Source: a bacterium
Lineage (GTDB): Bacteria > Auribacterota > Auribacteria > Auribacterales > Auribacteraceae
DNA: 64,000 nt
NCBI GenBank assembly: GCA_018435605.1
Contig: JAHDNF010000012.1
Coordinates: forward strand, 72,895-136,894
Direction of reading: 5' to 3'
The translations under genes were made by a program, and so were the position numbers. Of this stretch, positions 1-59,698 are shown piece after piece (within the stretch, counting starts at the first letter, position 1; each line of letters begins with the position of its first letter). A model generated the notes under the pieces. It worked only from the letters and a program-made list of their open reading frames with translations. It was not told the origin of the DNA and ran no database searches.

Positions 1-4
1 AACA

Positions 5-3000
5 GTGTTTAAGATTGACAAAAATTCACGTTCCGTTGTCGGTTATATTGAAAATATGACATTTGTTTCCGAGATACCGCAGGATATATCTAAACTGCCC
101 GCAGAATTTGAGAAACTGATAAGTACCGTAATGGCAAATGCTGAAACACGTAATGTCGGCCTTTTGCATCCGATACTTGACGGCGCGTTACGCAAAGTTC
201 TGCCGCCCGATGAAGTAGACCGCAGTATGATTGAAGTCGGTATCAGTTACGATGAAGTCGATTTGGTGACATTCCGTGTAGAACCTTATGCTGAAGGAAC
301 ACCTGCGAGTATCGTCTCAGCTGATCCTATGAGAATGTCTTATAGCGAATCGCCCGGAGCGTACGGCGATTTGTTTTCTATTGTCAGTACATTTACGGAT
401 CAGGCGCAGATGGATCGCATACGGGAAGATGACAACCGTCTACAGCTTCTTACTCTTTTTCACCGTCATGCGCAGGAACAGATACGGCAAGTGATCGAAC
501 TTCTTTACGATGCTTACGGATTAAGCCAATATCCAGTGGAACTGAATATAAAACTTGCGCCAGGACCGCTTGCCGATTCATTTTTTAGCGAAACGGAAGG
601 CTATAAACTGTACCTGAATGCTCATGCGTTCCGCTCTGCGGGTCTGTTATTTGCCCAATTGGAACATGAAATACGCCATGCTATGGTTAAACAGCAGGCA
701 CAATCTGCGCTTGAGTCGGTTATGCCGTCCGCTGAAATTACTCCGCGGATGGTCGATTTTATCACGGAAATGTACGTTGCTTTAAAAGAAATCCAACGCT
801 ACGACCAGTTCGGTCTCGATGCGGAACTTGGTGTTGCTACTAAAAAAGCCATTGAGGCAGTAGATAATCCTATTGATCCGCAAGGTGAATTTTACCAGAT
901 TACCCGTCTTGCCGGAGAACAACGGCGCGATGCGTTACTGGAATTAGTTGCCCGCAGGTTTTTTGTTGATGCCGATGCGCTACCGACACCTGAAGTTGTC
1001 ACGAATGCGGTAGCTCAGCTTGATATCCGCCTTTCGGCCATCGGTAAATTGGGTGATTTCAGCGTGTTTGTCAATGAAAAGGGACAGATTGTCCGTTTGA
1101 CTGAAGATGACCGTCAAGCTAATCTTGCGCGAGCTCAGAATCTTATAGATAACAAAGCGGCCTATATACCGAATCCGAAAACCGTTCTTATATCGCCGTC
1201 TGCCGTTATCGGGCATCTGGCAGAAATCAATGCCGACTCATCTATTCTCGGCGATAATATTACCATCGGACGCAAAGTTTCCGTCGGCAAGGGCGCTAAG
1301 ATTATATCCGACGGCGGTATCATAAATATTGACGAAGGCGTAGTTATAGACGATGGAGTTGTTATCCGCGCTAAAGTTGGCGAAACCATTGCTATCGGCG
1401 CTGGAACAAGGATACTCAAAGGAGCGTTAATAAGCGGTAATACTTCCATAGGCGAAAAAGCTCTTATTGACCAGTCGACACTTAAAAATGCCGCTGTTGC
1501 TAACAACACTCGAATTGTAGGCAGTGATGTATGGGGGCAGGCGGATAATCCGGTTATTATCGCACAAAACGCTCAGATTCTTTATTCTAGGTTGCGTTCG
1601 CTAGATAGAAGTATGGCGCAAACCGCCGATTTGCTGGAAGGCGGTGTGCCGTCCTCTCTATCTACTATTTTGACAGCGCAAAAGTATGTTGTCGATTCCT
1701 CACAAACCACAATCGGTTCGGGCACTGTTGTAGAAAAAGCGGAAATCATAAATAGTCAGATCGGAAGTAAAGCAACTGTTCGCGAAAATTCGCGTATAGT
1801 CCACAGCGTTATAGGAGATGGGTCTGTTGCGCGCGTTAATGCGGATATTAAGTTAACTTATATGGGGCGTGAAGTTGAGGTCGGTTCTGCTGTGGAAAGA
1901 TGTTATTTCGGGGACGGCGCGAAATCAGAACATCAAGGTTCCCGCCTTGAGCATCTAATCATGCCGAACGAGTATCCTGTAATCGACGCAAACGGAAATC
2001 TTGCACGAATACTTGTTCCTAATACATCTAATATTGGCGCTGGAACTATAGTGCAAAACAATACAGGAGTACCGATTATCGGATACAACCTGTTTACCGG
2101 TATCAATTCTAAGGTTGTTACCTCGGCGGATAATCCAACCGTTATTTATCCGTTTACATTGACCAAAGATACGACCGGCGGCGAATTGTTTCCATTCGCA
2201 TATTCTCAGCAGGTCGGTAAATCGATTGACGCTTGGATGCTGGACACTTATGTTGGAGCAGTTATCAATCACCATAAAAAGACATTGTCGCTTGCTAAGA
2301 AACTTGGATATCCGATGCACGATTTCGATCAGCTTTTCTCAGGTACCATGCGTCTTGCTGTTACAAAAGTGCAGAATAAACTTGATGAGTTGCGTAGTGA
2401 ATACGATACCGCTAATTTGCCGGGCAAACGTAGCGCCGAAACGATACAAAAAGATATCGATGCGTATAGTGTTGCATTTAATACGCTTAGCGCGCATCTC
2501 GAAAGCCGGTCGTGGGAACTGCAAAACGGACAGTTTGTCAACGGTGAGTTCGAATGGCATCCCGGCGACAAATGGTCTACTCCGGCGCTTAACGCTTTTA
2601 TGAAAATGAAGAATCAGGAATTGGAGAATTTCAAAAATATTTATACGGTTTTGCAGGAAAATTTGAATGTTCCGGATCAGTATGTGCCGGAATCATTTAG
2701 CGGAATGGCTGTCATGGAGACGGATGGAATCCGAGGAGTTGCCACCCCTGACAGGCTTATCGACGGTTCTCATGTAACGCCGGTGATGGGGTATAGACTT
2801 GGGTTGGTCGCGGCGTTGTATTCTGCGGCGCAGGGCAAAAATGAGATATATGTCGGCGGCGATACTCGTCCAAGCACTGACTATTTATTAAAACCCGTAA
2901 CGGATGCCGCCCGTAGTCTTGGTCTTACAGTCAAACATGTGCCGACAGCTATAGATCATACGCCCGGTGTGCAATATAAAGTCATGCAGGATGCTCAAGT

Positions 3001-6000
3001 AGGAGGCGGACTGGTGGTTACAGCGTCGCATAATCCGGCTAGGGATAACGGATTCAAGCTGTTGACGGAAACCGGTTCCAAGATTCCCGAACAATGGGAA
3101 AATATTGCCAATCGCATTGTTAACGCTAAAGACCTAGCCCATGAAATGGCGCAGGTCATAGAAGAGCTGGGTGGAACTGAAAAATTTCAGCCGTATCTCG
3201 ATAATCTTACACAAGGCAGAAAAGGTATGTTGCTCGACGCGCAAACTTCTGCTGATGAACAGTACGCTCAAGAAGTTGTCGACGCGCTGAAGATTCTTAT
3301 TCCTGCCGGGGCGCCTGCTACTACATTTACTATAGATACCGCCAGCGGAGCCGGCGTGCGGATATTGCAGACTCTTCAAAATAAATTGAATCAGATACCC
3401 AATTTTTCAATAGACTTAATCAATACCACCGGCGTCATAAATGAAGATCGAGGCGCGGAATATGTACATAAAAAACTCGCGAAAGATATAGCGGCAGGCA
3501 AAAAATTACCCGCTTGGCTTGACTCCGTTCGTGGTCAGGTTATCGGTACGCTGGACGGCGATGCGGACAGAAATCTGTTGTTGCGCCTAAATGACGACAA
3601 TACTCTTGAAGTGATTGACGGCGATAAGTTTGCCGCATTGAAAGCGTTTGTATTGCAAAAATATATGAAAGAAGCTGGCCTCCCTGACAGATTTAAAGTG
3701 GGAGCGGCGCAAACAGTTTTAGCTAACGTGGGTTCTGCAAGTTTCTTCGAACGCATGGGTATCGATGTTCAGGAAACCAAAGTCGGCGACAAATATGTTC
3801 GCGCGGCGGCTGAAGACTGGGCATACGGAAATACTGAAAAAGGGTTGCCGGCACACGGAGTAGCGGTTTACTATGAAGCCGCAGGACACGGATCGATCAT
3901 ATTTTCTCAGGATTTTATTGACGCGGTTAACGTAGCGCAACCCTCACCCGCAAAAGATGTATTGAGCGGAATAATTGCCATACAAAATATGGCAGGCGGG
4001 GACGGTATACGAAACCTATTGCTGTTCATGGCTTTAATGATGCGAGAAAACCTGACGTTCGACCAGTTGAACGATCCGGGCAATCTTTATGCCGAGATAC
4101 CTAAAGTCGAACTGGAAATGAAGGTCAAATATAAAAACAATGTTACATCAGTTGAAAATCTAGGTAAAGAGGTAACAGGCCCTGAAGATCTGGTAGTAGC
4201 GATTGCACAGTGGAAAGAACGGCTTGGCGATGGATATCGAATTATAATACGTCCTTCGGGTACATCGCAGAAAGTGCGCGTTCAGGTTGATGGCCCTGAC
4301 ACACAGTTAATTCAAGAAGCCGCTTACGGGTTGATGCAGTCGATTTATGACAGCCCCAATATTATAGGCGATCCGGCGGAACCCTTACCTAAAGATAAAC
4401 TCGCCGAAATAAAAGCCAATCTGCAGAAAGAACAGCAGACAAAACAGATAGCTCAGTTCCGGCAGGATAATCTTGCGCAAATAGAACAAACGGTTCGTCA
4501 GAATTTTAAAGAGGACGATCGCTATAAACCTATCGAGGTAACCGGACTGGCAGAAGTAGGCACCGATGGTATCCGAGGCAAAGCGGTTGCCGACCCTATT
4601 CTCGACAGCAAGCATATTACTCCGACCGTAGCGTATCGTATGGGTATAACTTCCGCTCTACACGCATGGGCGCAGGGAATGCCGGTAATACATGTAGCCG
4701 GAGATACCCGTCCGAGTACACCATATTTGATGGATGCGTTCATCGCAGGCGCACAGCAAATGGGCGTACAGGTACGTGTAGACGGGGTTAATCGGGTATC
4801 TTCTACACCGCAACTGCAGTTGTTTGCCCGTCAGGATGTTGTTACCGGCGCGGGCGGTATTATTACAGCTTCCCATAATCCAGCGCCTGACAACGGTATA
4901 AAATTGATCGACCATCAGGGCGGAAAAATATCTGCCCAATGGGAACAGATTACCAACGAAGTGGTCAACAGCTCCGACCTGCCGGCTACTATTGCCGGTA
5001 TAATCAGTACGTTCCAGACCAACGGACAGATCGACCGCAATAAAATTAACGTTGCTCTCGATACTCTCGGTAAAACGGGACAGGTTGTAATACGTGAGGA
5101 TGCCGCTGTTGCGCAGATCGGCAATAACCCTGCTTATGTAGAGAGAGTTACACAGACATTGAAAACTCTTTCTAAACTTGTGCAGGAAGAGTATCCGCAA
5201 CGGCGCGGCGAAGTTTTTTTAATCGACTCGGCAAGCGGGGCAGGCACGGCGGCGTTACAGCAAATAGCACAGCGGTTTAACGAAATGTATCAGGCAGGCG
5301 AAACTCATTATCAGATGCAGATCATCAATACCGATGGAGTAATCAACGAAGAAAAAGGAGCGGAATTCGTTCATAAAGAATTGGGCAAAGAAATAGCCGC
5401 CGGCAAACCGCTTCCTCACTGGATTCAGGAGCATGTCGGTGTTGAAATAGGTACTGTTGACGGAGATGCGGATAGAAACCTGTATTTCAAGGTAAACGAA
5501 GCGGGTGAACTGGAAGTTGTCGACGGAGATAAATTCGCGGCTTTAAAGGCAAAAGTACTCGATAAATATCTAAAGGAACTCGGGCTTGATTCTCAATTTC
5601 AGGTCGGCGTAGCCCAGACGGTGCTCGCTAACCTCGGTTCTAAAGGGTTCTTTGACCGCATGGGCATTCAGGTGCAGGAAACTGCAGTGGGTGATAAGTA
5701 TGTCCGTGCGGCGGCGCTTGATTGGGCAGTTGATCACGGTGTTGCCGTATATTATGAAGCGGCAGGGCATGGTTCTATTGTATTTAATGATGATTTTCTT
5801 AATACCCTGCGTCAGTATCAGCCGCAAACTTCTCAACAAGTCAGAGCTAAAGCAATACTCGACAGTATAGTAAATCTGCAAAATGAAGCCGGCGGTGACG
5901 GCATTATGAATCTGTTGCTGTTTAAGGCGTTAATGGAACTTGAAAATCTGAGTTTCGACCAGTTGAACAGCGATCAATTCCTGTACCGCGAATTACCTAA

Positions 6001-9000
6001 GACTGAACTGGAATTGAAAGTCGCTCATAAGGAAAATGTTACCTCTATAGAAAACCTCGGCAAAGATTTGACCGGACCGCGGGATGTGGTTGACTTTGTA
6101 GCTCGTACTAAGGCGGAACTGCGCGCGGAACTGGACGCAAGACTAGCCCGCGGTGAATTGACCGAAGCCGATTTACCGGTAAAAGAATTCAGGGTTATCG
6201 TTCGCTATTCCGGAACATCTCCTAAGGTACGAGTGCAGGTTGACGGGCCTGTTGCGGATTTGGCTCAGAAGTCGGCATATCAGATCATGCAGGCAATTTA
6301 TGACAGTGAAGCGGTAAAAGGCGATCCTGCAGAACGACGTCCTATGGATAAATATGAGGAGATCGTATCCGCACAGAAACAAAAAATGCTCTCCGAATTG
6401 ACCTTGACTATGGAAGACGGTGCGCGGTTTGTACACGGTTGGGACTTTTTAAATGAAAACGAACGGGTTGCAATTTTGCTCGATCTTTCAAGAAATGGAT
6501 TCACAGCTGATAAACTGGAAAAATTGATGGAAGTACATGCAAAAGGCGGCGAAAAAGCTATCGAAGCGCCTGCGCAGAAGGCAACTTTCGAAGCTCCGGA
6601 CATGAAGGATATTTCAGAAGCAAATATAGACGAACGTCAGAGGGCTATAGTGCTTGGCGCGTCCCAAGATAACGTCGATCGATCCGCATTGGTTGTCATT
6701 GCGGGCGGAGACGGCGGGCGATTGCTTAGCAATATGGGATTTACCGAGGAAGAAAAGTCTGCGTGGAGCAAACCGACAATTCCTGTAACGGCGGTAGCGA
6801 AAAAACCGCCGCTACAGCGTATCATAGAAACCATGGCAAAGGTTCGCGCCGACCGTCAAAGCGAAATACCTATTGTCGTGGTGGTAGGCCCGAAAAGCCG
6901 CGGCCCCATAGAAACATTTTTAAAGAACAATGACTATTTTGGGATTGAAAACATTGTTGTCTTAGAGCAGGGGAGATATCCGGTTCTAAGAACTATAGAG
7001 CAGGGTCAACCGCCTAAACTAATTCTAACTCCCGATAAAACCGTCGAGTACAATCCAGACGGTACGGGCGGTATTGTGGATGTCATGGCTACACCTGTTA
7101 CGGTACAGGGTAAACCTTTTACATCGGTCGTCGATTATCTTGATTCGGTCGGCCGGGACAAAGTGATTTTCTGGGGTGGAGACGTGCCCGGTCTGACTTC
7201 AGACTTATTCTATGGTATTCTCGGTGTCAGTAAAGGGGTTAGCGGCACGGAAGACGTCGATGTTGTCGGTTTGGCTTACGCCAGCCAGAACAAAGGCCTT
7301 GGTACCATGGTTATGATGAACGGCCAGACTGTAATGGTCATAGAAAATGTCGACCGTTCAAGCTATCTGGGTCTTGAAGAAGCTGACGACACAACCGACG
7401 GCAAAATGGGATTGCCGCGCAATAGCGGCGGATATATGATGTCCCTTGCGGCTATCAAAGACGTTATACAGAATTTTCCGGTGCACCTACAGGCTGAAAA
7501 AGATATAAACGGTTTTAATCCGGAAACCGGCGAACAGATACTCAAGGCCGATAAAATGGAAAAATTTTTCCCGGATATCTTTCCAATAGTGACTCAAAAT
7601 CCGCAACGATCGGTAATTATCGGTGTTTCCGATGAAAAAGATATGGTTCCCCAAAAATCCATACCGCAAATGCACAAAGCCAGTATTGAATTGATACAGC
7701 AGGATAAACAACGACTGCAACAGCAATATGGAGTAAATATACACGAAACAGCAGTGCTTGATGTGTCACCATTGTTTGAAGGAAACATCGGGAGTAATGT
7801 TTTTCTGGGTGAAAACGCGCAACTCTATGTTGGGCGCAACGTTTCTATCGGAAGTAATGTTTTGATAGGTAAAGACACTACTGTCCGAGGCGAGAATATT
7901 GTTTTGGGCAGAAATGTTGTACTGACAAATGGAAGTTCCGTTATGGTTGAAGGAACCGGTCAGCTGGTAATAGAGGACGGAACTATCGTTGACGGAAACG
8001 TCTCCATATTTGTACGTGACGGAGAACGTGTGGTAATAGGACCAAAATCGCAGATTCTTAACGATACTGTTATTTCGGGAGTAGTTACAATCGGCGAACG
8101 CGCTCAGCTGGATACTGCCAGAATATCTTTTGCCGTATTGCAAAATGGCGTCAGAGTCGAAAATAGTACGCTCGAGGGCGTTTCCGCGGCGTTGCCTGTT
8201 GTTCTGGGTAATGATGTGGTTGTGTCAGGCAGATCATTGTTAACAAATCTCCTTAAAGCGAAAGAATGGAGTTTTCTTGAAGCGGGCGATATACGCGACG
8301 ATTTTACGCCGGTGGACGATTTCGTGTTACGAAGATATAAAGTCGAATCACATCAAACAGTTATAGGTGACGGCACGGTCATTCACGACGCCCGAATAAA
8401 AAATACGAAAATAGGAAGTAACTCAGTTGTAGGACCGGGAGTAGCTATCGAACATAGCGATATCGGCAATGACGTACAGGTGCTAAAAGGCGCGAATATC
8501 ACAGTATCTAAAATTCTAGATAATGCGGTCATAGCGAGCGAAGTCAGCAAGAGTTTTCTTGGTGTCGGTTTCGTTACCGAAGGCACAAGAACATATTTGA
8601 GCACCATTGCCCCCAACGAATTTATCCTTGCAGACGAACAAGGTAATTTGCGGGTTGCGCAATTACCTAACCCTACTGTAATCGGCAATGGGACAGTATT
8701 CGCTAATTACGGAGGTAAACCGTTGCCTGACCTGAGCGGAAGCCAGAAAGGAACTTCGGTGATTTATGCGTCTTCCATCAGGGATAACGTGGTCAATCTG
8801 TATGATCATCCTGATGTTGCGTTGGTTGATCTGGTCAATCAACCGAATGTAACGGTTATTTATCCATTTTCCAAAACGAACAACGAGGTATGGGGTACAG
8901 TTTTGCCGTTCACGATAGCAAGTTCGCTTAGTCCGTTGGCACATCAGATCGGCGCTGTGCTTGATTCTGATCCGGCGATGATTGTGGATATGGTCAGAAG

Positions 9001-11287
9001 AATGCATGATATATTGCCTGATGACCGCAAAGATATGGCCAAACAGGTAGTCGAAGGAAGTTTATGGTTGGGTGTAAAACTGGTTAACCAACAGCTTGAC
9101 GATGTCAATAAACGTCTTGAGAAAAGACCGGAAGATAAAAAATTATTGCAACGTAAAGCACAACTCGAACAAGGGCTTGCCGTTTACCTAAAACATCTTG
9201 ATGGACGATGGGCGGATCCGTTGGCAGTCGATCATTCCGCGATAGCTATGAGCAACTACGATCAATCGCGTCAGACTGTAGATTATGTGCGCGTATTCGG
9301 TAATCCTGATGTTCTGACTTTGGAAGACAAAGCCATAGATGCCATGAGAACCGATCCTGCATTGCTCGATCAAATAAAAGCTATTTTGGGCGATATGGAT
9401 TTGGCGCGATTTCCGGAGCAGAAACAGCGTTTTGATGCGGCATACGGTCCTCAAGGAACACCTCAGCAACAGGTTAAATTATTCTCCGATATCGCTAAAG
9501 AACGTCTAGCCTCGATTAGGGATATACTTAGAGCGAGGTATCGCGGAGTTGACAGCTTGACTTTTGTTATAGCGCTCGGTTCGGAACGACTTGCAGAACG
9601 CAATGTAGGAGGCGACAGACGAATTGTTATCAACGCTCATGCCTTGCGGTCGCCGGCATTGATGTTTTCGCAGGCGGAACATGAATTGTTCCATGAATTG
9701 CTCGAGCACGCTGTTTCAGAAACCATCGAATCGAGCAATACTAAAAATAAAGGGTTGATTACCGCTATATTTCAGCGCGATATAATTGCGGAAGGTGTTG
9801 CTGTAGAAGATGCTGAAGCGGAAGCGAGCAGGCGTGTGGATCATTTTTACGCTAAGTTTAAAGAGTTCATGACTGAAGATTTTATTATCAGCAAAGAGTT
9901 GGATCGTATAAATATGATGGCTCAATCGGTTCGCCAATCCATTATCGCAATATTGCGCGACCCAGCAAATCCCATAGATCAGGGAGCGCGATTCGCAGAT
10001 CTCATTGAACAGTCATATAATGTGAGTCCCGCTAAAAAACGGCAATTGGTACAGGATTATATTCTTCGCAATTATGACGCTATGGGGGTAGTCGGCAGTG
10101 TGTTATATAAAATGCGCCAGTTGCGAACTACAGTTGATGAATCCCGCCAGATAGGGTTGTCTATTACCCCTTCCATGTTGGATTTGCTAAATATTGTCGA
10201 CAACGGTAAAAAACCTGATTCAACCAACTTTGCCGGCGCTGTAGCGGTAGATGGAGAACATTATTTTGAGTCGGCAATACGTCCGTTTATGGTAAATGAC
10301 AGTTTTATAGTGGATGTTGATACTCAGGATAGTCTTACGGCGTATATTACCGAAGTTCCCGCAACGGATATCATACGGAGTGAACTGCACGATATATCCG
10401 CGATTGATTTCGATGTATTCGGCGAATCGAAAATAGCCGATTCCAATAGTCTGTTCTTGTCTGACGCATTGGGAAAATTACGCGAAAACGCCCAAGCAAA
10501 CGGGCGGTCGGCAAAAATATTGATATTCTCTTTGCGCAAAGATGCCGATGAAATCAGGGAATACCTTGATTTCCGCGGTGTCGATCTGGCTACAGTGGTA
10601 ATCGTAGACAGAAACGATATCATAACTATGGCAGGAACCAGCGTTCAGATAGACGATGCTTATATGGAAGTTTACACCGTTCTTGAAGCGGCGGCAAAGG
10701 CTAATGACTATACTGCACTCGATGATATTTATGGAAAAATAGACAATAACAATCCGAGCGCTCTTGCGTTCGGATCCAAATTGATAAATGTTTTGCTTAA
10801 AACATTAAATAAAGCGGCTAACATACCCGGCGTAGATGCTACGGATGTAAAGCTTGCAGTTAGCAAACAGGCACTTGTGAAAGTTGCTGTATCCAATAAT
10901 ATTCGGACAATTTCTTGGGATACTATCGGACAGGATACTCTTAGGGAAGGTGATTTGATTGAGGCCGGCATTGATAATCTGCTACTTCTTCAAGTTCTCG
11001 AACCGGGCAGTGAAGTTCCCGGATCTCTGGTAATTACCGCCGTGGCGCCTGACAAGGTAATCAACGGTATCAAGGTGCACGAGATATTCACCAAAGAACA
11101 AAACAGGCGCAATGAAGCGGGTATAACCGAACCGATAACTATTGAGTTTATGGTTGATGCGCTGGGCATAAACTTTCTTACCAAAGAAGATATAAAAGGT
11201 ATTGCGGTAAAAGCGCCCAAACGCGAAATTGACCGTGAGTTTTCCGAAAAATTGCGTAGACAGCAGTTGTTCGATCAGTCTGCTTAA
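5..11287 (+). CDS. Giant multidomain protein, >=3760 aa, probably 5'-partial: HExxH module, LbH, 2x phosphohexomutase, UDP-sugar pyrophosphorylase (UAP1/UDPGP-like), LbH, HExxH module, C-terminal domain shared with the next gene
   Basis: Uninterrupted 11.3-kb ORF. The frame is open to the window edge (codon 2-4 is ACA) and no RBS is visible. Motifs: HEIRH (665), SNIGAGT (~2027), ETDGIRG/TASHNP/DGDADR/YEAAGHG/RPSGT (2714-4350), the same set again (4559-6310), IAGGDGGRL/PDGTGG/KMEKFFPDIFP (6698-7585), ANYGG (8702), HELFH (9680). Confidence 0.93.
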   Translation: MFKIDKNSRSVVGYIENMTFVSEIPQDISKLPAEFEKLISTVMANAETRNVGLLHPILDGALRKVLPPDEVDRSMIEVGISYDEVDLVTFRVEPYAEGTPASIVSADPMRMSYSESPGAYGDLFSIVSTFTDQAQMDRIREDDNRLQLLTLFHRHAQEQIRQVIELLYDAYGLSQYPVELNIKLAPGPLADSFFSETEGYKLYLNAHAFRSAGLLFAQLEHEIRHAMVKQQAQSALESVMPSAEITPRMVDFITEMYVALKEIQRYDQFGLDAELGVATKKAIEAVDNPIDPQGEFYQITRLAGEQRRDALLELVARRFFVDADALPTPEVVTNAVAQLDIRLSAIGKLGDFSVFVNEKGQIVRLTEDDRQANLARAQNLIDNKAAYIPNPKTVLISPSAVIGHLAEINADSSILGDNITIGRKVSVGKGAKIISDGGIINIDEGVVIDDGVVIRAKVGETIAIGAGTRILKGALISGNTSIGEKALIDQSTLKNAAVANNTRIVGSDVWGQADNPVIIAQNAQILYSRLRSLDRSMAQTADLLEGGVPSSLSTILTAQKYVVDSSQTTIGSGTVVEKAEIINSQIGSKATVRENSRIVHSVIGDGSVARVNADIKLTYMGREVEVGSAVERCYFGDGAKSEHQGSRLEHLIMPNEYPVIDANGNLARILVPNTSNIGAGTIVQNNTGVPIIGYNLFTGINSKVVTSADNPTVIYPFTLTKDTTGGELFPFAYSQQVGKSIDAWMLDTYVGAVINHHKKTLSLAKKLGYPMHDFDQLFSGTMRLAVTKVQNKLDELRSEYDTANLPGKRSAETIQKDIDAYSVAFNTLSAHLESRSWELQNGQFVNGEFEWHPGDKWSTPALNAFMKMKNQELENFKNIYTVLQENLNVPDQYVPESFSGMAVMETDGIRGVATPDRLIDGSHVTPVMGYRLGLVAALYSAAQGKNEIYVGGDTRPSTDYLLKPVTDAARSLGLTVKHVPTAIDHTPGVQYKVMQDAQVGGGLVVTASHNPARDNGFKLLTETGSKIPEQWENIANRIVNAKDLAHEMAQVIEELGGTEKFQPYLDNLTQGRKGMLLDAQTSADEQYAQEVVDALKILIPAGAPATTFTIDTASGAGVRILQTLQNKLNQIPNFSIDLINTTGVINEDRGAEYVHKKLAKDIAAGKKLPAWLDSVRGQVIGTLDGDADRNLLLRLNDDNTLEVIDGDKFAALKAFVLQKYMKEAGLPDRFKVGAAQTVLANVGSASFFERMGIDVQETKVGDKYVRAAAEDWAYGNTEKGLPAHGVAVYYEAAGHGSIIFSQDFIDAVNVAQPSPAKDVLSGIIAIQNMAGGDGIRNLLLFMALMMRENLTFDQLNDPGNLYAEIPKVELEMKVKYKNNVTSVENLGKEVTGPEDLVVAIAQWKERLGDGYRIIIRPSGTSQKVRVQVDGPDTQLIQEAAYGLMQSIYDSPNIIGDPAEPLPKDKLAEIKANLQKEQQTKQIAQFRQDNLAQIEQTVRQNFKEDDRYKPIEVTGLAEVGTDGIRGKAVADPILDSKHITPTVAYRMGITSALHAWAQGMPVIHVAGDTRPSTPYLMDAFIAGAQQMGVQVRVDGVNRVSSTPQLQLFARQDVVTGAGGIITASHNPAPDNGIKLIDHQGGKISAQWEQITNEVVNSSDLPATIAGIISTFQTNGQIDRNKINVALDTLGKTGQVVIREDAAVAQIGNNPAYVERVTQTLKTLSKLVQEEYPQRRGEVFLIDSASGAGTAALQQIAQRFNEMYQAGETHYQMQIINTDGVINEEKGAEFVHKELGKEIAAGKPLPHWIQEHVGVEIGTVDGDADRNLYFKVNEAGELEVVDGDKFAALKAKVLDKYLKELGLDSQFQVGVAQTVLANLGSKGFFDRMGIQVQETAVGDKYVRAAALDWAVDHGVAVYYEAAGHGSIVFNDDFLNTLRQYQPQTSQQVRAKAILDSIVNLQNEAGGDGIMNLLLFKALMELENLSFDQLNSDQFLYRELPKTELELKVAHKENVTSIENLGKDLTGPRDVVDFVARTKAELRAELDARLARGELTEADLPVKEFRVIVRYSGTSPKVRVQVDGPVADLAQKSAYQIMQAIYDSEAVKGDPAERRPMDKYEEIVSAQKQKMLSELTLTMEDGARFVHGWDFLNENERVAILLDLSRNGFTADKLEKLMEVHAKGGEKAIEAPAQKATFEAPDMKDISEANIDERQRAIVLGASQDNVDRSALVVIAGGDGGRLLSNMGFTEEEKSAWSKPTIPVTAVAKKPPLQRIIETMAKVRADRQSEIPIVVVVGPKSRGPIETFLKNNDYFGIENIVVLEQGRYPVLRTIEQGQPPKLILTPDKTVEYNPDGTGGIVDVMATPVTVQGKPFTSVVDYLDSVGRDKVIFWGGDVPGLTSDLFYGILGVSKGVSGTEDVDVVGLAYASQNKGLGTMVMMNGQTVMVIENVDRSSYLGLEEADDTTDGKMGLPRNSGGYMMSLAAIKDVIQNFPVHLQAEKDINGFNPETGEQILKADKMEKFFPDIFPIVTQNPQRSVIIGVSDEKDMVPQKSIPQMHKASIELIQQDKQRLQQQYGVNIHETAVLDVSPLFEGNIGSNVFLGENAQLYVGRNVSIGSNVLIGKDTTVRGENIVLGRNVVLTNGSSVMVEGTGQLVIEDGTIVDGNVSIFVRDGERVVIGPKSQILNDTVISGVVTIGERAQLDTARISFAVLQNGVRVENSTLEGVSAALPVVLGNDVVVSGRSLLTNLLKAKEWSFLEAGDIRDDFTPVDDFVLRRYKVESHQTVIGDGTVIHDARIKNTKIGSNSVVGPGVAIEHSDIGNDVQVLKGANITVSKILDNAVIASEVSKSFLGVGFVTEGTRTYLSTIAPNEFILADEQGNLRVAQLPNPTVIGNGTVFANYGGKPLPDLSGSQKGTSVIYASSIRDNVVNLYDHPDVALVDLVNQPNVTVIYPFSKTNNEVWGTVLPFTIASSLSPLAHQIGAVLDSDPAMIVDMVRRMHDILPDDRKDMAKQVVEGSLWLGVKLVNQQLDDVNKRLEKRPEDKKLLQRKAQLEQGLAVYLKHLDGRWADPLAVDHSAIAMSNYDQSRQTVDYVRVFGNPDVLTLEDKAIDAMRTDPALLDQIKAILGDMDLARFPEQKQRFDAAYGPQGTPQQQVKLFSDIAKERLASIRDILRARYRGVDSLTFVIALGSERLAERNVGGDRRIVINAHALRSPALMFSQAEHELFHELLEHAVSETIESSNTKNKGLITAIFQRDIIAEGVAVEDAEAEASRRVDHFYAKFKEFMTEDFIISKELDRINMMAQSVRQSIIAILRDPANPIDQGARFADLIEQSYNVSPAKKRQLVQDYILRNYDAMGVVGSVLYKMRQLRTTVDESRQIGLSITPSMLDLLNIVDNGKKPDSTNFAGAVAVDGEHYFESAIRPFMVNDSFIVDVDTQDSLTAYITEVPATDIIRSELHDISAIDFDVFGESKIADSNSLFLSDALGKLRENAQANGRSAKILIFSLRKDADEIREYLDFRGVDLATVVIVDRNDIITMAGTSVQIDDAYMEVYTVLEAAAKANDYTALDDIYGKIDNNNPSALAFGSKLINVLLKTLNKAANIPGVDATDVKLAVSKQALVKVAVSNNIRTISWDTIGQDTLREGDLIEAGIDNLLLLQVLEPGSEVPGSLVITAVAPDKVINGIKVHEIFTKEQNRRNEAGITEPITIEFMVDALGINFLTKEDIKGIAVKAPKREIDREFSEKLRRQQLFDQSA

Positions 11288-11503: not shown

Positions 11504-14500
11504 ATGTTGAAACGTACGGAAAACCGAGGATTGCGAAAGTGTTTGAGCTTTCTACTGATCCATTTGCTACTCATAAGTCAACTGCCGTATCTGTACGCTA
11601 CGGTTCCTTCCAATGTGAGGTATAACGAACGATACGGACGTACGCGAGATTCTTACGACGGCGATAACGGAAAGATGATCATCCATATTCAGGATGCCCA
11701 TTGTATATACGAAGCGCAGAAAAACATTGTCGGTATTGTACGTGATTTATACAATAATCATAATGTGCGTCTTATTACTGTTGAAGGCGCGGACGCATAT
11801 TTCAATGCCGACGAATTGGCCGCGTTTCCAGTACAGTCTATCAAAGATGATGTAGCAGAATTTTTTTTAAAAAACGGTCGAATATCAGGTGCAGAGTATT
11901 TGTTAATACAGAATGACTTGCCTCTGGCATTGCGCGGGGCAGAGAACAGGGACTTATACATCGAAAACTATAACTCATTTTTGAATGCAATGCCCAAACC
12001 CGGCGATAAAGTTATGACGGCTATAGATATGCTGGATTCCGCCTTAGAAACATTGAAAATATTGATGCTCAACGATGATCTGCGTGAACTGGATGTTTTT
12101 CATCATATGCATTCCAATGGGCAGATTGAGTTTATAGACTACGCAAATTATCTGATCGGCAAGGCGGGTTCGGTTGACATATCTTTTGAAAATATGCCGA
12201 ATATACAGATATTGATGCAGTCGCAGGAACTGGAAGAATCAATAGATTTTGCTACCATTCATATCGAAGTCGGGGAATTAATTGATGCTGTCGCTGATAT
12301 AATCGACCGCGAGCAGTTGACAGAACTTCTGAATAAAAATTTGTTCTACAAGATAGGCAGAATTCCTCCTTATGTGTTTTTCAGTTTTTTACAGGAAATT
12401 TGTAACAAAAATAATATAGCTATTTCGGCTTACCCCAATCTAAATACCTACTGTGAGTATCTGGGATTATATGATTCGATCGACGATGTGGCAGTCGTTT
12501 CAGAATTGTATGACCTTGAATCTGATGTCATGGAAATGATGTTTGCCGATCCGATACAGAAAGAGCTTATTAGTGTTTCACAGGATATTTCATTGCTACG
12601 TAAGTTAATGTCACTGAAAGTATCTAAGCTGGAATTGAAACGTTTTCAGGCTGATACCGATAAGTTTACCGAACAACGTTTTCTGGCGTTCCTAAAGAAA
12701 ACCGTGCCTACTTATGATATCCCGTTCAATTTTGATTATGATTTTAGCGCCATAAGTTTGAAATTACCTATGATAGATAATTTTTATAAAGTTGCAGTAA
12801 AACGCAATGAAGCACTTATTGAGAATACCTTAGCTGAAATGGATCTTGAAGATTCGAATATTGCCGTTTTAATTACAGGCGGATTTCATACCCAAGGCAT
12901 AACGGATATTCTTAAAGACGAAGGCATTTCCTACAGAGTTATATCGCCGTCAATTACCGAACAGCCGGAAACAAGTTATTATCTGACACGCCTGACCGGT
13001 ATGCCGACAGACATTGAAGATAGATTGACAGCAAATAAATTGCAGATACCGCTCGTTCTTGCAGATCCTGCCATTATCCCTGATGTGGCGGCGGCAGAGA
13101 ATTTTAAAACGGCGTTCAAAACTCTTATGGAAGCGCATCCCGAAGCCGTTAATCTCGAACAAATTTTGGCAGGCAAGCCTACCGGATATACGCCTACAGT
13201 TACATTCACGGATGCGTTTATGATCGATAACATTCGTTATCTTTCTTTTAACATTGAAGGTCGCAAGATGTTTTTAGCCGTCGGCGCGAAAGATATGAAA
13301 ACAGTTGCAGGAGTACAACCTACAGTTATCGGAGAGTATGCATACGGTTTTATACAGGAAGACACATTTGTCGCGCAGGCGCAAAATCCGAATAGGCGTA
13401 TGATCGAAAAACAAACCGATCTTAGAATTACAATAGAGAATGCGCTGGCCAGAGGTGAGAAAGTCGACTTAACTGAATCGCAATTGGTATGGAATGAACA
13501 AAATAACGCCGATTTTCAAGATATGCTTGCTCGAGGATTTCTTGTAAAACAAGCTGAAGGGTCTTATTTGCCGTCGATCGGCTTTTTGCTGAATTCGAAT
13601 TTGTCTGCGCTGGTAGTTAAACCGCGGGTAGCGCAGATCGATTCTCTCGATGCCGCCAATAGAGAGTTTTTTGCGAGGCGCGGCATAAAACGTATTGAAG
13701 TTTTTTCAAACCAGACCGATTTGACCGCTCAAGATGTGCAGTTGCTACAGCAAGGTCTTTCCGATTTGATGTCCAATAAAAAGATCGAACTGACCAACGG
13801 CAAAGTAGTCCGTGCGGTGGTAGATGCCCAAACCGGATTTATGCAGATTTACAGTATGGCGCCACAGGGGCCGTTGCAGATCAGGCCGCAAATTGTCATC
13901 AATCAGCAGATATTTGATGCGATGCTTCCTCAAGCGGATCGTATACAGGTTACCTCAGCGTTGCAGTCGCAACGTCAAGGTTATATCAGTATAGACGCTA
14001 TGACACGTACAGTAACGCTTTATGAACTAAACCAGGAAGGTTTGCGTTCACCTGTAGGCCCTCCTACGGTTTTACCTCCGAATATTACATCTGCAGATGT
14101 GCTGGCGTCAGTACTTGAAATGAGAAAAAGGGCTGAAGAGGCAGGTATCGGATTGATCGGCTACGGTAACCCCGAAGCAGGCTACAGCATCGCTTTCGAG
14201 AACCTTAATGAACTTTTGGACGCAGTTGAAAACTCTCCGCAGGTAAAGGCATTTCTCAATGTGCACCGTCTATTGTCGGTAGTGCCGTCCTTGCAAGATA
14301 TAGATTTGACCGGTAAACAAGATTTTAATACGCTGATGGATTATCTTTACAGCCTTATGCCCGACCCGAAAACCTATGATGACCGGATCACCTGCGCGGC
14401 CGCGTCTGCCGCGTTACTGCACAATGTTGTCAAAATAGACGGCATCCCGATCAATTTTTTATATTTACAGCGTAAATGGTTGCTGGAAAGAATGTTGCCT

Positions 14501-17380: not shown

Positions 17381-18322
17381 ATGATATCTAAAAAATTGTT
17401 TTTTTCTATAGGGATTATTTTGTTGTGCGCTGTTAATGTCAATGCGATATCGTATCTGTATATATGTGGGATAAATGACGGGAAATTAATTAAAATGGAC
17501 CCTGAATCTGGAGTTATTATAGATACTATAAACGATGGTGGATTGAATAATGCACAGGGTATCTGTTTGGGGCCTGATAATTATTTATATGTAAGCAGTT
17601 ATAACTCAAATCAGATTCTTCGTTACGATAGAGAAGGTAACTTTATCGATGTTTTTTCGCAAGGAACATCAATGATGTATCCTATGGGTATGGATTTCGG
17701 GCCGGATGGTTATTTGTATGTAGCTAGTAATAACGGGACAACACATTTCCAGATTTTGAAAGTTAATCCGAGTAATGGAAACGTATCGGTCTTTGCTAAT
17801 GGCAACCCGCTTTATAAACCTCATGGAATAGAATTTGGTCCGGATGGATTATTGTATGTTTGTAACCAAACCGGACATAATATTATAGCATATGATGTTT
17901 TATCAAATACGTATGAAGGTGTTTTTATCGATGGGTATAGTGCGCCTATTGACATTACATTTAGCTCTAATTTTGATGTCTATGTTGCTGATTATCTGGC
18001 TAATAGGGTATATATTCTTGATCAGAACGGCAATCAGATCGACACTCTTATTACAGGACAATCCGGTTATGTTTATGGACTTGCACTCGATGAAGCATCC
18101 AATATATTGTATGTCAATAATTATGGGACAAGTAATGTACATAAGTTTGATCTTTCAACAAAATTATTGTTAGATACTTTCTATACAGGCGCTAACAATA
18201 ATTATCCAACATTCATTGAGTTTGTATCTTTTTCTACAGATGTAATTCCAGAGCCCACAACAATAATATTGTTTTTATCAGGTGTTATCGCATTATTACG
18301 CAAGAAGAATACTGTACTATAG
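17381..18322 (+). CDS. PEP-CTERM-sorted beta-propeller (NHL/Vgb-like repeat) protein
   Basis: Signal peptide; repeated G(I/M)xFGPDGxLYV blades; C-terminal VIPEPTTIILFLSGVIALLRKK (PEP motif, TM helix, basic tail). Confidence 0.88.
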   Translation: MISKKLFFSIGIILLCAVNVNAISYLYICGINDGKLIKMDPESGVIIDTINDGGLNNAQGICLGPDNYLYVSSYNSNQILRYDREGNFIDVFSQGTSMMYPMGMDFGPDGYLYVASNNGTTHFQILKVNPSNGNVSVFANGNPLYKPHGIEFGPDGLLYVCNQTGHNIIAYDVLSNTYEGVFIDGYSAPIDITFSSNFDVYVADYLANRVYILDQNGNQIDTLITGQSGYVYGLALDEASNILYVNNYGTSNVHKFDLSTKLLLDTFYTGANNNYPTFIEFVSFSTDVIPEPTTIILFLSGVIALLRKKNTVL

Positions 18323-54521: not shown

Positions 54522-56100
<1,579 letters not shown>

Positions 56101-56253
56101 AGTACGCGGGTTCGAATCGGATCACATTATTTTATTGGCGATAATGGTTCTCCGATTCCTTCTATATGAAGTTTGCCCGAGTACGGTCGATAGCCTCTGA
56201 TGTATCGCCTCAAATAAATTTTAAATTTTGTATAATCTGAGCAAGATTTGCAG

Positions 56254-56330
<77 letters not shown>

Positions 56331-56336
56331 TATACT

Positions 56337-56412
56337 GGGGATATAGCTCAACTGGGAGAGCGCTGCCCTTGCAAGGCAGAGGTTACCGGTTCGATCCCGG
56401 TTATCTCCACCA
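56337..56412 (+). tRNA. tRNA-Ala(TGC)
   Basis: Cloverleaf with G3:U70; anticodon loop ctTGCaa; encoded CCA. Confidence 0.98.
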
Positions 56413-56495
56413 ACTTAAATTTATGTTTTTATTTTTATTAGATATATATGATCTTTGACAGTAATATAGGGTATTAAATAAATTTCGTCGAAAAT

Positions 56496-59499
<3,004 letters not shown>

Positions 59500-59581
59500 T
59501 ATTACGATATATATCCGGAACAACTTGCAAAAGTTGTTCCGGATACCCTATAATACTGTTAAAATTTTATATGTTTATAAT

Positions 59582-59698
59582 TCTCGGTGATATTAGCAGA
59601 GGGGAAATACCCGTTCCCATTCCGAACACGGCAGTCAAGCCCTCTTGCGCCGATGGTACTGCGACGATAGGTCGTGGGAGAGTAGGTCATTGCCGAGT
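59582..59698 (+). rRNA. rrf: 5S ribosomal RNA
   Basis: ctcggtga...cccgttcccattccgaacac...gagagtaggtcattgccgag; terminal helix ctcgg/ccgag. Confidence 0.96.

Follow-up and report, generated by a model that had tools for sequence, protein, structure and literature searches.

A duplicated HExxH module of predicted zincin-like design in the end regions of a giant amino-sugar enzyme protein from Auribacterota

What do two HExxH-bearing modules do on either side of a block of amino-sugar enzymes in one giant bacterial protein? The question is raised by ORF1, the first open reading frame of a 64,000-nucleotide stretch of an Auribacterota genome (contig JAHDNF010000012.1, positions 72,895 to 136,894; the window, below, means this whole stretch). 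An earlier note on this DNA had described the two modules, A and B, as a novel repeat with a zinc-peptidase signature that could cut the polyprotein to release its enzyme cargo or act on a target. A and B were found to be true paralogues over ~160-190 residues, and the module is classed here as a new family with a zincin-like design. Both copies are most likely metal (zinc)-dependent hydrolase domains, by analogy putative peptidases, because the complete site has been kept in both copies of the protein and in all orthologues. The full reading, in which zinc-dependent hydrolases of a new zincin-like family, by analogy peptidases, would serve limited proteolysis in giant-protein maturation, is the one we tentatively prefer, with somewhat less than even confidence.

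Two paralogous modules in the end regions of P0002

The 5' end of ORF1 is cut by the window, and its full-length product, P0002, was recovered by a database search as a protein of 4672 amino acids (aa) that is 100% identical over the window part and adds 911 N-terminal residues upstream; residue i in window numbering, which is used throughout, is therefore residue i+911 of P0002. The same search returned nine relatives with 48-76% identity, one of them source-labelled Candidatus Auribacter fodinae, and the P0002-type protein is conserved in Auribacterota-type metagenome-assembled genomes. P0002 begins with a signal-peptide-like segment, which is the sole strongly hydrophobic stretch of the whole protein, and continues in the order N-terminal domain, module A, left-handed beta-helix (LbH) domain, two copies of phosphoacetylglucosamine mutase (PAGM), a UDP-N-acetylglucosamine (UDP-GlcNAc) pyrophosphorylase-like (UAP-like) region, a second LbH domain, module B and C-terminal domain (Table 1). 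At 45-47%, the G+C content of ORF1 lies above that of the rest of the window.

The motif strings quoted in the earlier note were all located in frame 2 of the + strand, namely LYLNAHAFRSAGLLFAQLEHEIRH at aa 203-226 (nt 608-679) with FITEMYVALKEIQR at aa 253-266 and DNPID at aa 288-292 in module A, and IVINAHALRSPALMFSQAEHELFH at aa 3208-3231 (nt 9623-9694) with FMTEDFIISKELDR at aa 3289-3302 and ANPID at aa 3322-3326 in module B. No HExxH motif other than these two occurs in the 4672 residues of P0002, for which composition predicts 0.06. The repeat, which had been noticed as a set of short motifs, proved to be a genuine duplicated domain of ~190-215 residues. A 38-aa core of A and B was aligned by BLASTP (E 1e-7), a hidden Markov model (HMM) built from the A orthologues alone detected B with an independent E-value (i-E) of 3.4e-18 over 161 profile positions, and alignment of the A alignment to the B alignment with hhalign gave a probability of 99.5% (E 2.7e-22) over 157 columns. 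Module B differs in that an insertion of ~30 helical residues separates its HExxH helix from the helix that comes next, which bears two conserved Glu residues (the Glu helix).

The modules also bracket the enzyme cargo, as had been claimed, in that both LbH domains, both PAGM copies and the UAP-like region lie between A and B. The LbH region, including its helical extension, is itself duplicated (31% identity, E 3e-34). Modules A and B flank this enzyme block yet sit inside larger conserved end regions. At the N-terminal side, a ~500-aa domain is common to P0002 (aa 1-600 of the full-length protein) and ORF2 (window 11504-13300), with 34% identity and E 8.6e-82; it was not recognised by Pfam, carries an HIQDAHC motif, and is also present in the giant proteins P0015, P0016, P0017, P0020 and P0023. 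At the C-terminal side, the ~410-aa region after module B is also found together with B-type modules in P0015 and P0017, and P0002 and ORF2 align over their last ~110 aa.

Table 1. Positions of the two modules, the enzyme block and other annotated features in the window (residues in window numbering; focal copies are the orthologous modules defined in the next section).
Feature	Window (nt)	Residues (aa)	Strand	Basis or remark
ORF1	2..11287		+	C-terminal 3761 aa of 4672-aa P0002; 5' end cut by window
Module A, HExxH domain copy 1	404..1051	135-350	+	HMM coordinates; directly N-terminal to LbH-1
Module A Asn-Ala	617..622	Asn206-Ala207	+	End of beta-strand ahead of HExxH helix; invariant in 18/18 focal copies
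Module A EHExxH	662..679	E221-H222-E223-I-R-H226	+	Sequence, alignment
Module A Glu-helix segment	767..799	E256 ... E263 ... R266	+	Three residues invariant in focal copies
Module A NPxD loop motif	866..877	N289-P-I-D292	+	Sequence, alignment
Enzyme block between modules A and B	1208..9106	403-3035	+	Pfam, internal repeats, PDB sequence matches
LbH-1 + helical extension	1208-2491	403-830	+	Pfam
PAGM 1, complete		~854-1489	+	Pfam, internal repeats
PAGM 2, complete		~1463-2139	+	Pfam, internal repeats
UAP-like region		~2141-2600	+	PDB sequence matches UAP1/AGX1, E 1.6e-5
LbH-2 + helical extension	7847-9106	2616-3035	+	Second copy of LbH-1 region
Module B, HExxH domain copy 2	9416..10054	3139-3351	+	HMM coordinates; ~100 aa past LbH-2, before C-terminal domain
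Module B EHExxH	9677..9694	E3226-H3227-E3228-L-F-H3231	+	Sequence, alignment
Module B Glu-helix segment	9875..9907	E3292 ... E3299 ... R3302	+	Sequence, alignment
Module B NPxD loop motif	9968..9979	N3323-P-I-D3326	+	Sequence, alignment
C-terminal ~410 aa after module B	10055..11284		+	No Pfam or PDB sequence match
NHL/beta-propeller protein gene, next after ORF2	17381-18322			Weak C-terminal PEP-CTERM motif
Complete rRNA operon (16S, two tRNAs, 23S, 5S)	54522-59698			G+C ~47% vs ~40% in flanking genes

Site residues, predicted fold and known families

Conservation was assessed on 8 A and 10 B orthologous modules (n = 18; the focal copies), with column numbers that follow alignment A1 and become window residues of module A on addition of 134. 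A and B share only 22-24% identity, yet 20 columns were found to be invariant across the focal copies: F19, A23, Y38, A57, N72, A73, S78, L81, E87 and H88, followed by E89, H92, F119, E122, E129, R132, N155, P156, D158 and F163. These include the HExxH motif, a Glu that lies 30 residues downstream in A and 61 in B, and, another 7 residues along, a second Glu, together with an extra acidic residue, E87, directly before the first His. The set EHExxH, Asn-Ala, two Glu, Arg and NPxD is thus kept in 18/18 copies.

Outside the focal copies, the site residues were observed to decay together. All eight modules with an intact HExxH also kept E129, N155 and D158, whereas among the nine modules that had lost HExxH, E129 was kept in 2/9 and D158 in 1/9. 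The latter set consists of the entire glutamine synthetase (GS)-array group (EHGFLF or EQGFLF at the motif), P0017 (RETSR), P0025 and L037. Of the four GlmS-type copies, two lack HExxH. Across the wider family L81 and E122 are near-universal. In module A terms, E256 is nearly universal, and E263 was lost with HExxH in several lineages. Loss of HExxH that is usually accompanied by loss of the second Glu and NPxD is what a single functional site made of these residues would lead one to expect, and the sequences point to such a site, with statistics that are weak inasmuch as only about four lineages have lost the motif independently.

Confident models of both modules were obtained with AlphaFold2, for module A (m198df341a980) with a predicted local distance difference test score (pLDDT) of 86.1 and a predicted template modelling score (pTM) of 0.81, and for module B (mdf1f8e4b436d) with values of 87.2 and 0.78. 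The elements come in one and the same order in both models, which begin with a long helix, two or three short strands and a one-turn helix. The long helix with HExxH (79-104 in model A, 80-106 in model B) comes next, then another long helix that bears both conserved Glu residues and the Arg, and then the NPxD loop with additional helices. In zincins, a backing helix and a sheet with an edge strand are likewise followed by the active-site helix and then the glutamate helix. The models are consistent with a zincin-like core, in which the backing helix, a small beta-sheet ending in Asn-Ala, the E-H-E-x-x-H helix, the helix with two Glu and Arg, and the N-P-x-D loop would follow one another. The candidate third-ligand Glu lies, in these predicted models, on the long helix next to HExxH (E256 or E263 in A, E3292 or E3299 in B).

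Several points count against a zincin assignment. The models were built on shallow family alignments (18-21 sequences). Foldseek gave no significant match in the PDB for either model (best E 0.65 for A and 2.8 for B) and none at E<=1e-3 in the viral model library BFVD. Pfam, NCBIfam and PDB sequence searches of the module were empty or below cut-off. Module A had no match in Pfam, 17 diverse family members scanned singly gave nothing consistent, and a PDB profile search returned chance matches only (a helix-turn-helix regulator and FADD). Of the earlier claim of a gluzincin signature, the HExxH on a predicted helix and the invariant downstream Glu stand, without a significant match to any peptidase family; of the zincin fold that had been asked of the structures, the order of elements fits a minimal gluzincin, without a significant Foldseek match in either library. 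The claim of novelty was upheld, as no database family, solved structure or paper describing the module was found. In the literature no description of an HExxH module was found, and a preprint on giant genes mentions none (10.1101/2023.11.21.568195).

Below the thresholds, the structural neighbours are largely of zincin type. In the PDB, the minigluzincin selecase (4qhg) ranked second for model B (E 3.1, probability 0.18). Among the top 26 BFVD matches, all sub-threshold, SprT, SprT-like, XE-like, IrrE-N-like and M48 models recur with probabilities of 0.51-0.99, and the zincin-type neighbours other than M48 reached 0.87-0.99 with root-mean-square deviations of 2.6-4.9 A over 73-119 columns.

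Which known family does the module resemble most? Minimal gluzincins (selecase, 4QHG, and the M48 and M56 cores) are likewise compact domains of roughly 100-200 residues, in which the HExxH helix comes after a small beta-sheet and is followed by a helix that bears a possible Glu ligand. Unlike a member of these families, the module shows no profile similarity to them, and its selecase match is not significant. Minimal gluzincins are not known to have the conserved Glu that precedes the first His in the module, nor its second Glu, its Arg or its NPxD loop. SprT-like proteins (including Spartan and Wss1) provide the best sub-threshold BFVD neighbours (SprT, SprT-like and XE-like, probability 0.93-0.99), and SprT and the module both have a strand ending in Asn ~15 residues ahead of HExxH. 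However, all E-values exceed 0.01, and the third-ligand His that follows HExxH shortly in SprT is absent or not conserved in the module. ImmA/IrrE proteins (M78) have an I-x-I-N strand ahead of the active-site helix, and the hhalign alignment is colinear with the module. In IrrE, HExxH is followed by a Glu roughly 27-30 residues downstream.

Membership in these families was examined with hhalign against real proteins of the M78, SprT-like and DUF5700 families (two in the case of DUF5700) that were taken from related genomes, and the outcome likewise disfavours a place for the module among known peptidases. M78 (ImmA/IrrE, PF06114) was rejected at a probability of only 1.7-9%, and SprT-like (PF10263) at ~1%, with no conserved His after HExxH in A or B, whereas the positive control, M78 against SprT with the same handling, gave 89.8%. 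By this sequence comparison, the module is farther from M78 and SprT than these two are from each other. DUF5700 (PF18958), a putative zinc-dependent peptidase family, is the only database family touched: module B scored 13.8 bits (E 0.039) against a cut-off of 25 bits, in an alignment that starts at HExxH, and one member of the broad alignment (A2) gave E 0.012. As the hhalign probability was <1%, this link was rejected, and the match is judged to be a motif-driven chance similarity. A diiron site built from two ExxH motifs was also considered and dropped, since the second helix has no His.

Giant carriers and the role of the module

How widely is the module distributed? The earlier note had called for a search of other giant proteins. 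In an exhaustive search with a profile of the 18 focal modules against 1.84 billion cluster representatives (E<=0.001), only 13 proteins were found to carry it. Apart from two fragments, these proteins are 1203-4679 aa long and begin with a signal-peptide-like segment, and nearly all are giant exported proteins with GlmS/SIS, GS or LbH domains. SIS/GlmS-type domains occur in P0015, P0016, P0022 and P0024; complete GS occurs in P0018 and P0019, in three copies in P0020 (2757 aa) and in six in P0023 (4424 aa); and LbH/DUF4954 regions are also among the cargo. Small free-standing relatives of the module were found neither among 8000 scored candidates nor in the exhaustive search, and the module is absent elsewhere in the window, including ORF2, and from the LbH-sharing giants P0012 and P0013.

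The position of the module in these chains follows its type. In several carriers, the ~500-aa N-terminal domain known from P0002 and ORF2 recurs (27-34% identity, E down to 1e-87), and P0015 and P0017 have module B and the C-terminal region in common with P0002. A-type modules stand between the N-terminal domain and the GS arrays (P0018, P0019, P0020 and P0023), whereas B-type modules follow the GlmS/SIS part (P0015, P0016, P0022 and P0024) and precede a C-terminal or LbH region. Four modules per genome were found in four species-representative genomes (G001-G004), one of which is labelled Candidatus Auribacterota: two in the ~4700-aa orthologue of P0002, one in a ~2780-aa GS giant and one in a further open frame, which in two of the four genomes is a GlmS-type giant of 3542-3807 aa. 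The GS-array giants with an HExxH-lost module are present in all four. Each of the four genomes seems to place the whole UDP-GlcNAc route on signal-peptide-bearing giants (GS, GlmS/SIS and PAGM/UAP/LbH).

Further features of the carriers and their relatives were noted. In P0020 and P0023, the segment that follows module A in P0002 is placed at the far C-terminus instead, so that the proteins appear to share a chassis into which cargo was inserted at varying positions. LbH with its helical extension is the sole part common to P0002 and the high-GC giants P0012 and P0013 (34-36% identity). The six GS copies of P0023 would equal one ring of the GS dodecamer. At G001:C8:1073-1576, near a contig end, the frame that holds a B-type module with its HExxH intact is interrupted by a TGA and a TAA, and may represent a decaying or misassembled third giant gene. 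The high-GC relatives P0012, P0013, P0019, P0022, P0024 and P0025 carry a conserved ...TQ..PAWALRPG motif (A[WY]ALRP) right after the N-terminal hydrophobic segment; it resembles an AxA signal-peptidase site with the conserved N-terminus of the mature protein behind it.

What would a metallopeptidase do at these places? The modules are part of the conserved end regions of signal-peptide-bearing giants with amino-sugar enzymes in the middle, copy A coming after the shared N-terminal domain and copy B before the shared C-terminal domain. Their proposed job is limited proteolysis in the maturation of P0002 or of sister giants of the same genome, with possible cuts at the borders between the end regions and the enzyme block. 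Limited proteolysis is the most economical proposal because the module is found where shared end regions meet enzyme blocks, because its occurrence is confined to exported giants that carry enzymes, and because some giants of this class must probably be cut. This last point concerns P0012 and P0013, the GlmS-type part of which contains an internal GCCGI motif. In N-terminal nucleophile (Ntn) amidotransferases, the catalytic Cys must be exposed as residue 1. We infer that at least some giants of this class need cleavage.

A concept of this kind has precedents in the MARTX cysteine protease domain and in the zincin-like releasing peptidases of polymorphic toxins, where a protease-type domain is embedded in a very long exported chain beside the modules that it would release. 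The likeness is a functional analogy known from the literature. Unlike those systems, which show no homology to the module, the cargo here consists of biosynthetic enzymes rather than toxins, and cleavage by the module is only inferred. Comparable giants of Omnitrophota, with C39-like and metabolic-enzyme domains, are described in the preprint on giant genes (10.1101/2023.11.21.568195).

Besides the comparisons given above, the following points weigh against a proteolytic role. No recognisable cut site was found in the giant protein. The six GS copies are fused in one relative's chain, and the enzyme cargo may therefore act while still fused, which would weaken the case for cargo release. The module is degenerate, with HExxH lost, in sister giants. 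Altogether, about half of the paralogous modules of other giants no longer have HExxH and are nevertheless maintained, so that the fold clearly has a second, non-catalytic use, i.e., a role that does not always need catalysis.

This loss is the starting point of the main rival, in which the module is a structural or adaptor domain, a pseudo-peptidase scaffold docking the end regions to enzyme or LbH blocks, and HExxH is an ancestral or purely structural metal site, a relic that does not serve proteolysis in ORF1. The modules that have lost HExxH are kept in long open frames (the GS-array giants, P0017, P0025 and L037), the only near-universal residues of the family are L81 and E122 and not the His residues, and the module has no significant similarity to any peptidase. 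However, both copies in 10/10 orthologues keep all ~12 site residues at 48-76% overall identity, and where these residues are lost, they are lost jointly and not randomly, as is typical of an abandoned active site. A purely structural role for modules A and B is hence regarded as rather unlikely, while being the alternative to be taken most seriously.

A more elaborate form of the proteolytic reading assigns tasks to intact and degenerate copies alike. In this form, the module would define a new zincin-type family of maturation proteases, the intact copies of which cut P0002 and the sister giants, while the degenerate copies serve as dead docking partners, and the products form enzyme assemblies. 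Between them, the polyproteins would then supply the enzymes that lead from ammonia and fructose-6-phosphate to UDP-GlcNAc, in working assemblies outside the cytoplasm. In all its parts this scheme is considered improbable.

Could active modules act on something other than giant proteins? The target of such metallopeptidases might be cell-envelope peptides, whether of the own cell or of a partner or prey cell. The N-terminal signal-peptide-like segment and the lack of any other hydrophobic segment in P0002 would suit this alternative. Giants of related uncultured phyla with peptidase-like and metabolic-enzyme domains were proposed to act on the surfaces of other cells, as this alternative would have it (10.1101/2023.11.21.568195). 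However, the sequence gives no pointer to a substrate, and the module is tied to giants with cytoplasm-type biosynthetic enzymes and was never found as a free secreted peptidase. An external target is accordingly thought to be quite improbable.

The remaining alternatives concern the chemistry of the site and the repeat itself. The residues could form a non-peptidase metal site, either of another hydrolase or of a metal sensor with a regulatory link to the amino-sugar enzymes. The absence of a detectable relation to peptidase families would be accounted for in this way, as would E87 just before the first His and the two Glu and Arg on the next helix. However, the order of elements and the sub-threshold structural neighbours are of zincin type, and, judging from the established pathway, the UDP-GlcNAc route of the cargo lacks no step for which such an enzyme would be required, which makes this alternative very improbable. 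Chance recurrence of short motifs as the origin of the A/B likeness is refuted by the hhalign and cross-HMM alignments described above and by the same helix and strand order in both models.

With limited proteolysis in giant-protein maturation as the preferred reading, what does the module offer? It provides a clear marker with which a very small and unusual protein class can be searched for (13 clusters among the representatives searched), namely signal-peptide-bearing giants of uncultured Planctomycetes-Verrucomicrobia-Chlamydiae (PVC)-type bacteria that string together amino-sugar pathway enzymes. An active protease would explain polyprotein maturation and add a new zincin family. An inactive module would still be a new domain with a conserved metal-type site, the repeated loss and retention of which among paralogues could be used to dissect its function. 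In either case, two well-bounded pieces of ~215 aa are available for experiment instead of a protein of 4672 aa.

Related loci

In the genome of the closest relative, a Transposase_mut/MULE gene (L001, 24283-25488) was found between the gene for the 4673-aa protein and that for an ORF2-like protein of 1899 aa. The giant gene and the ORF2 gene are thus neighbours in both genomes, the pair being interrupted by the transposase gene in the closest relative.

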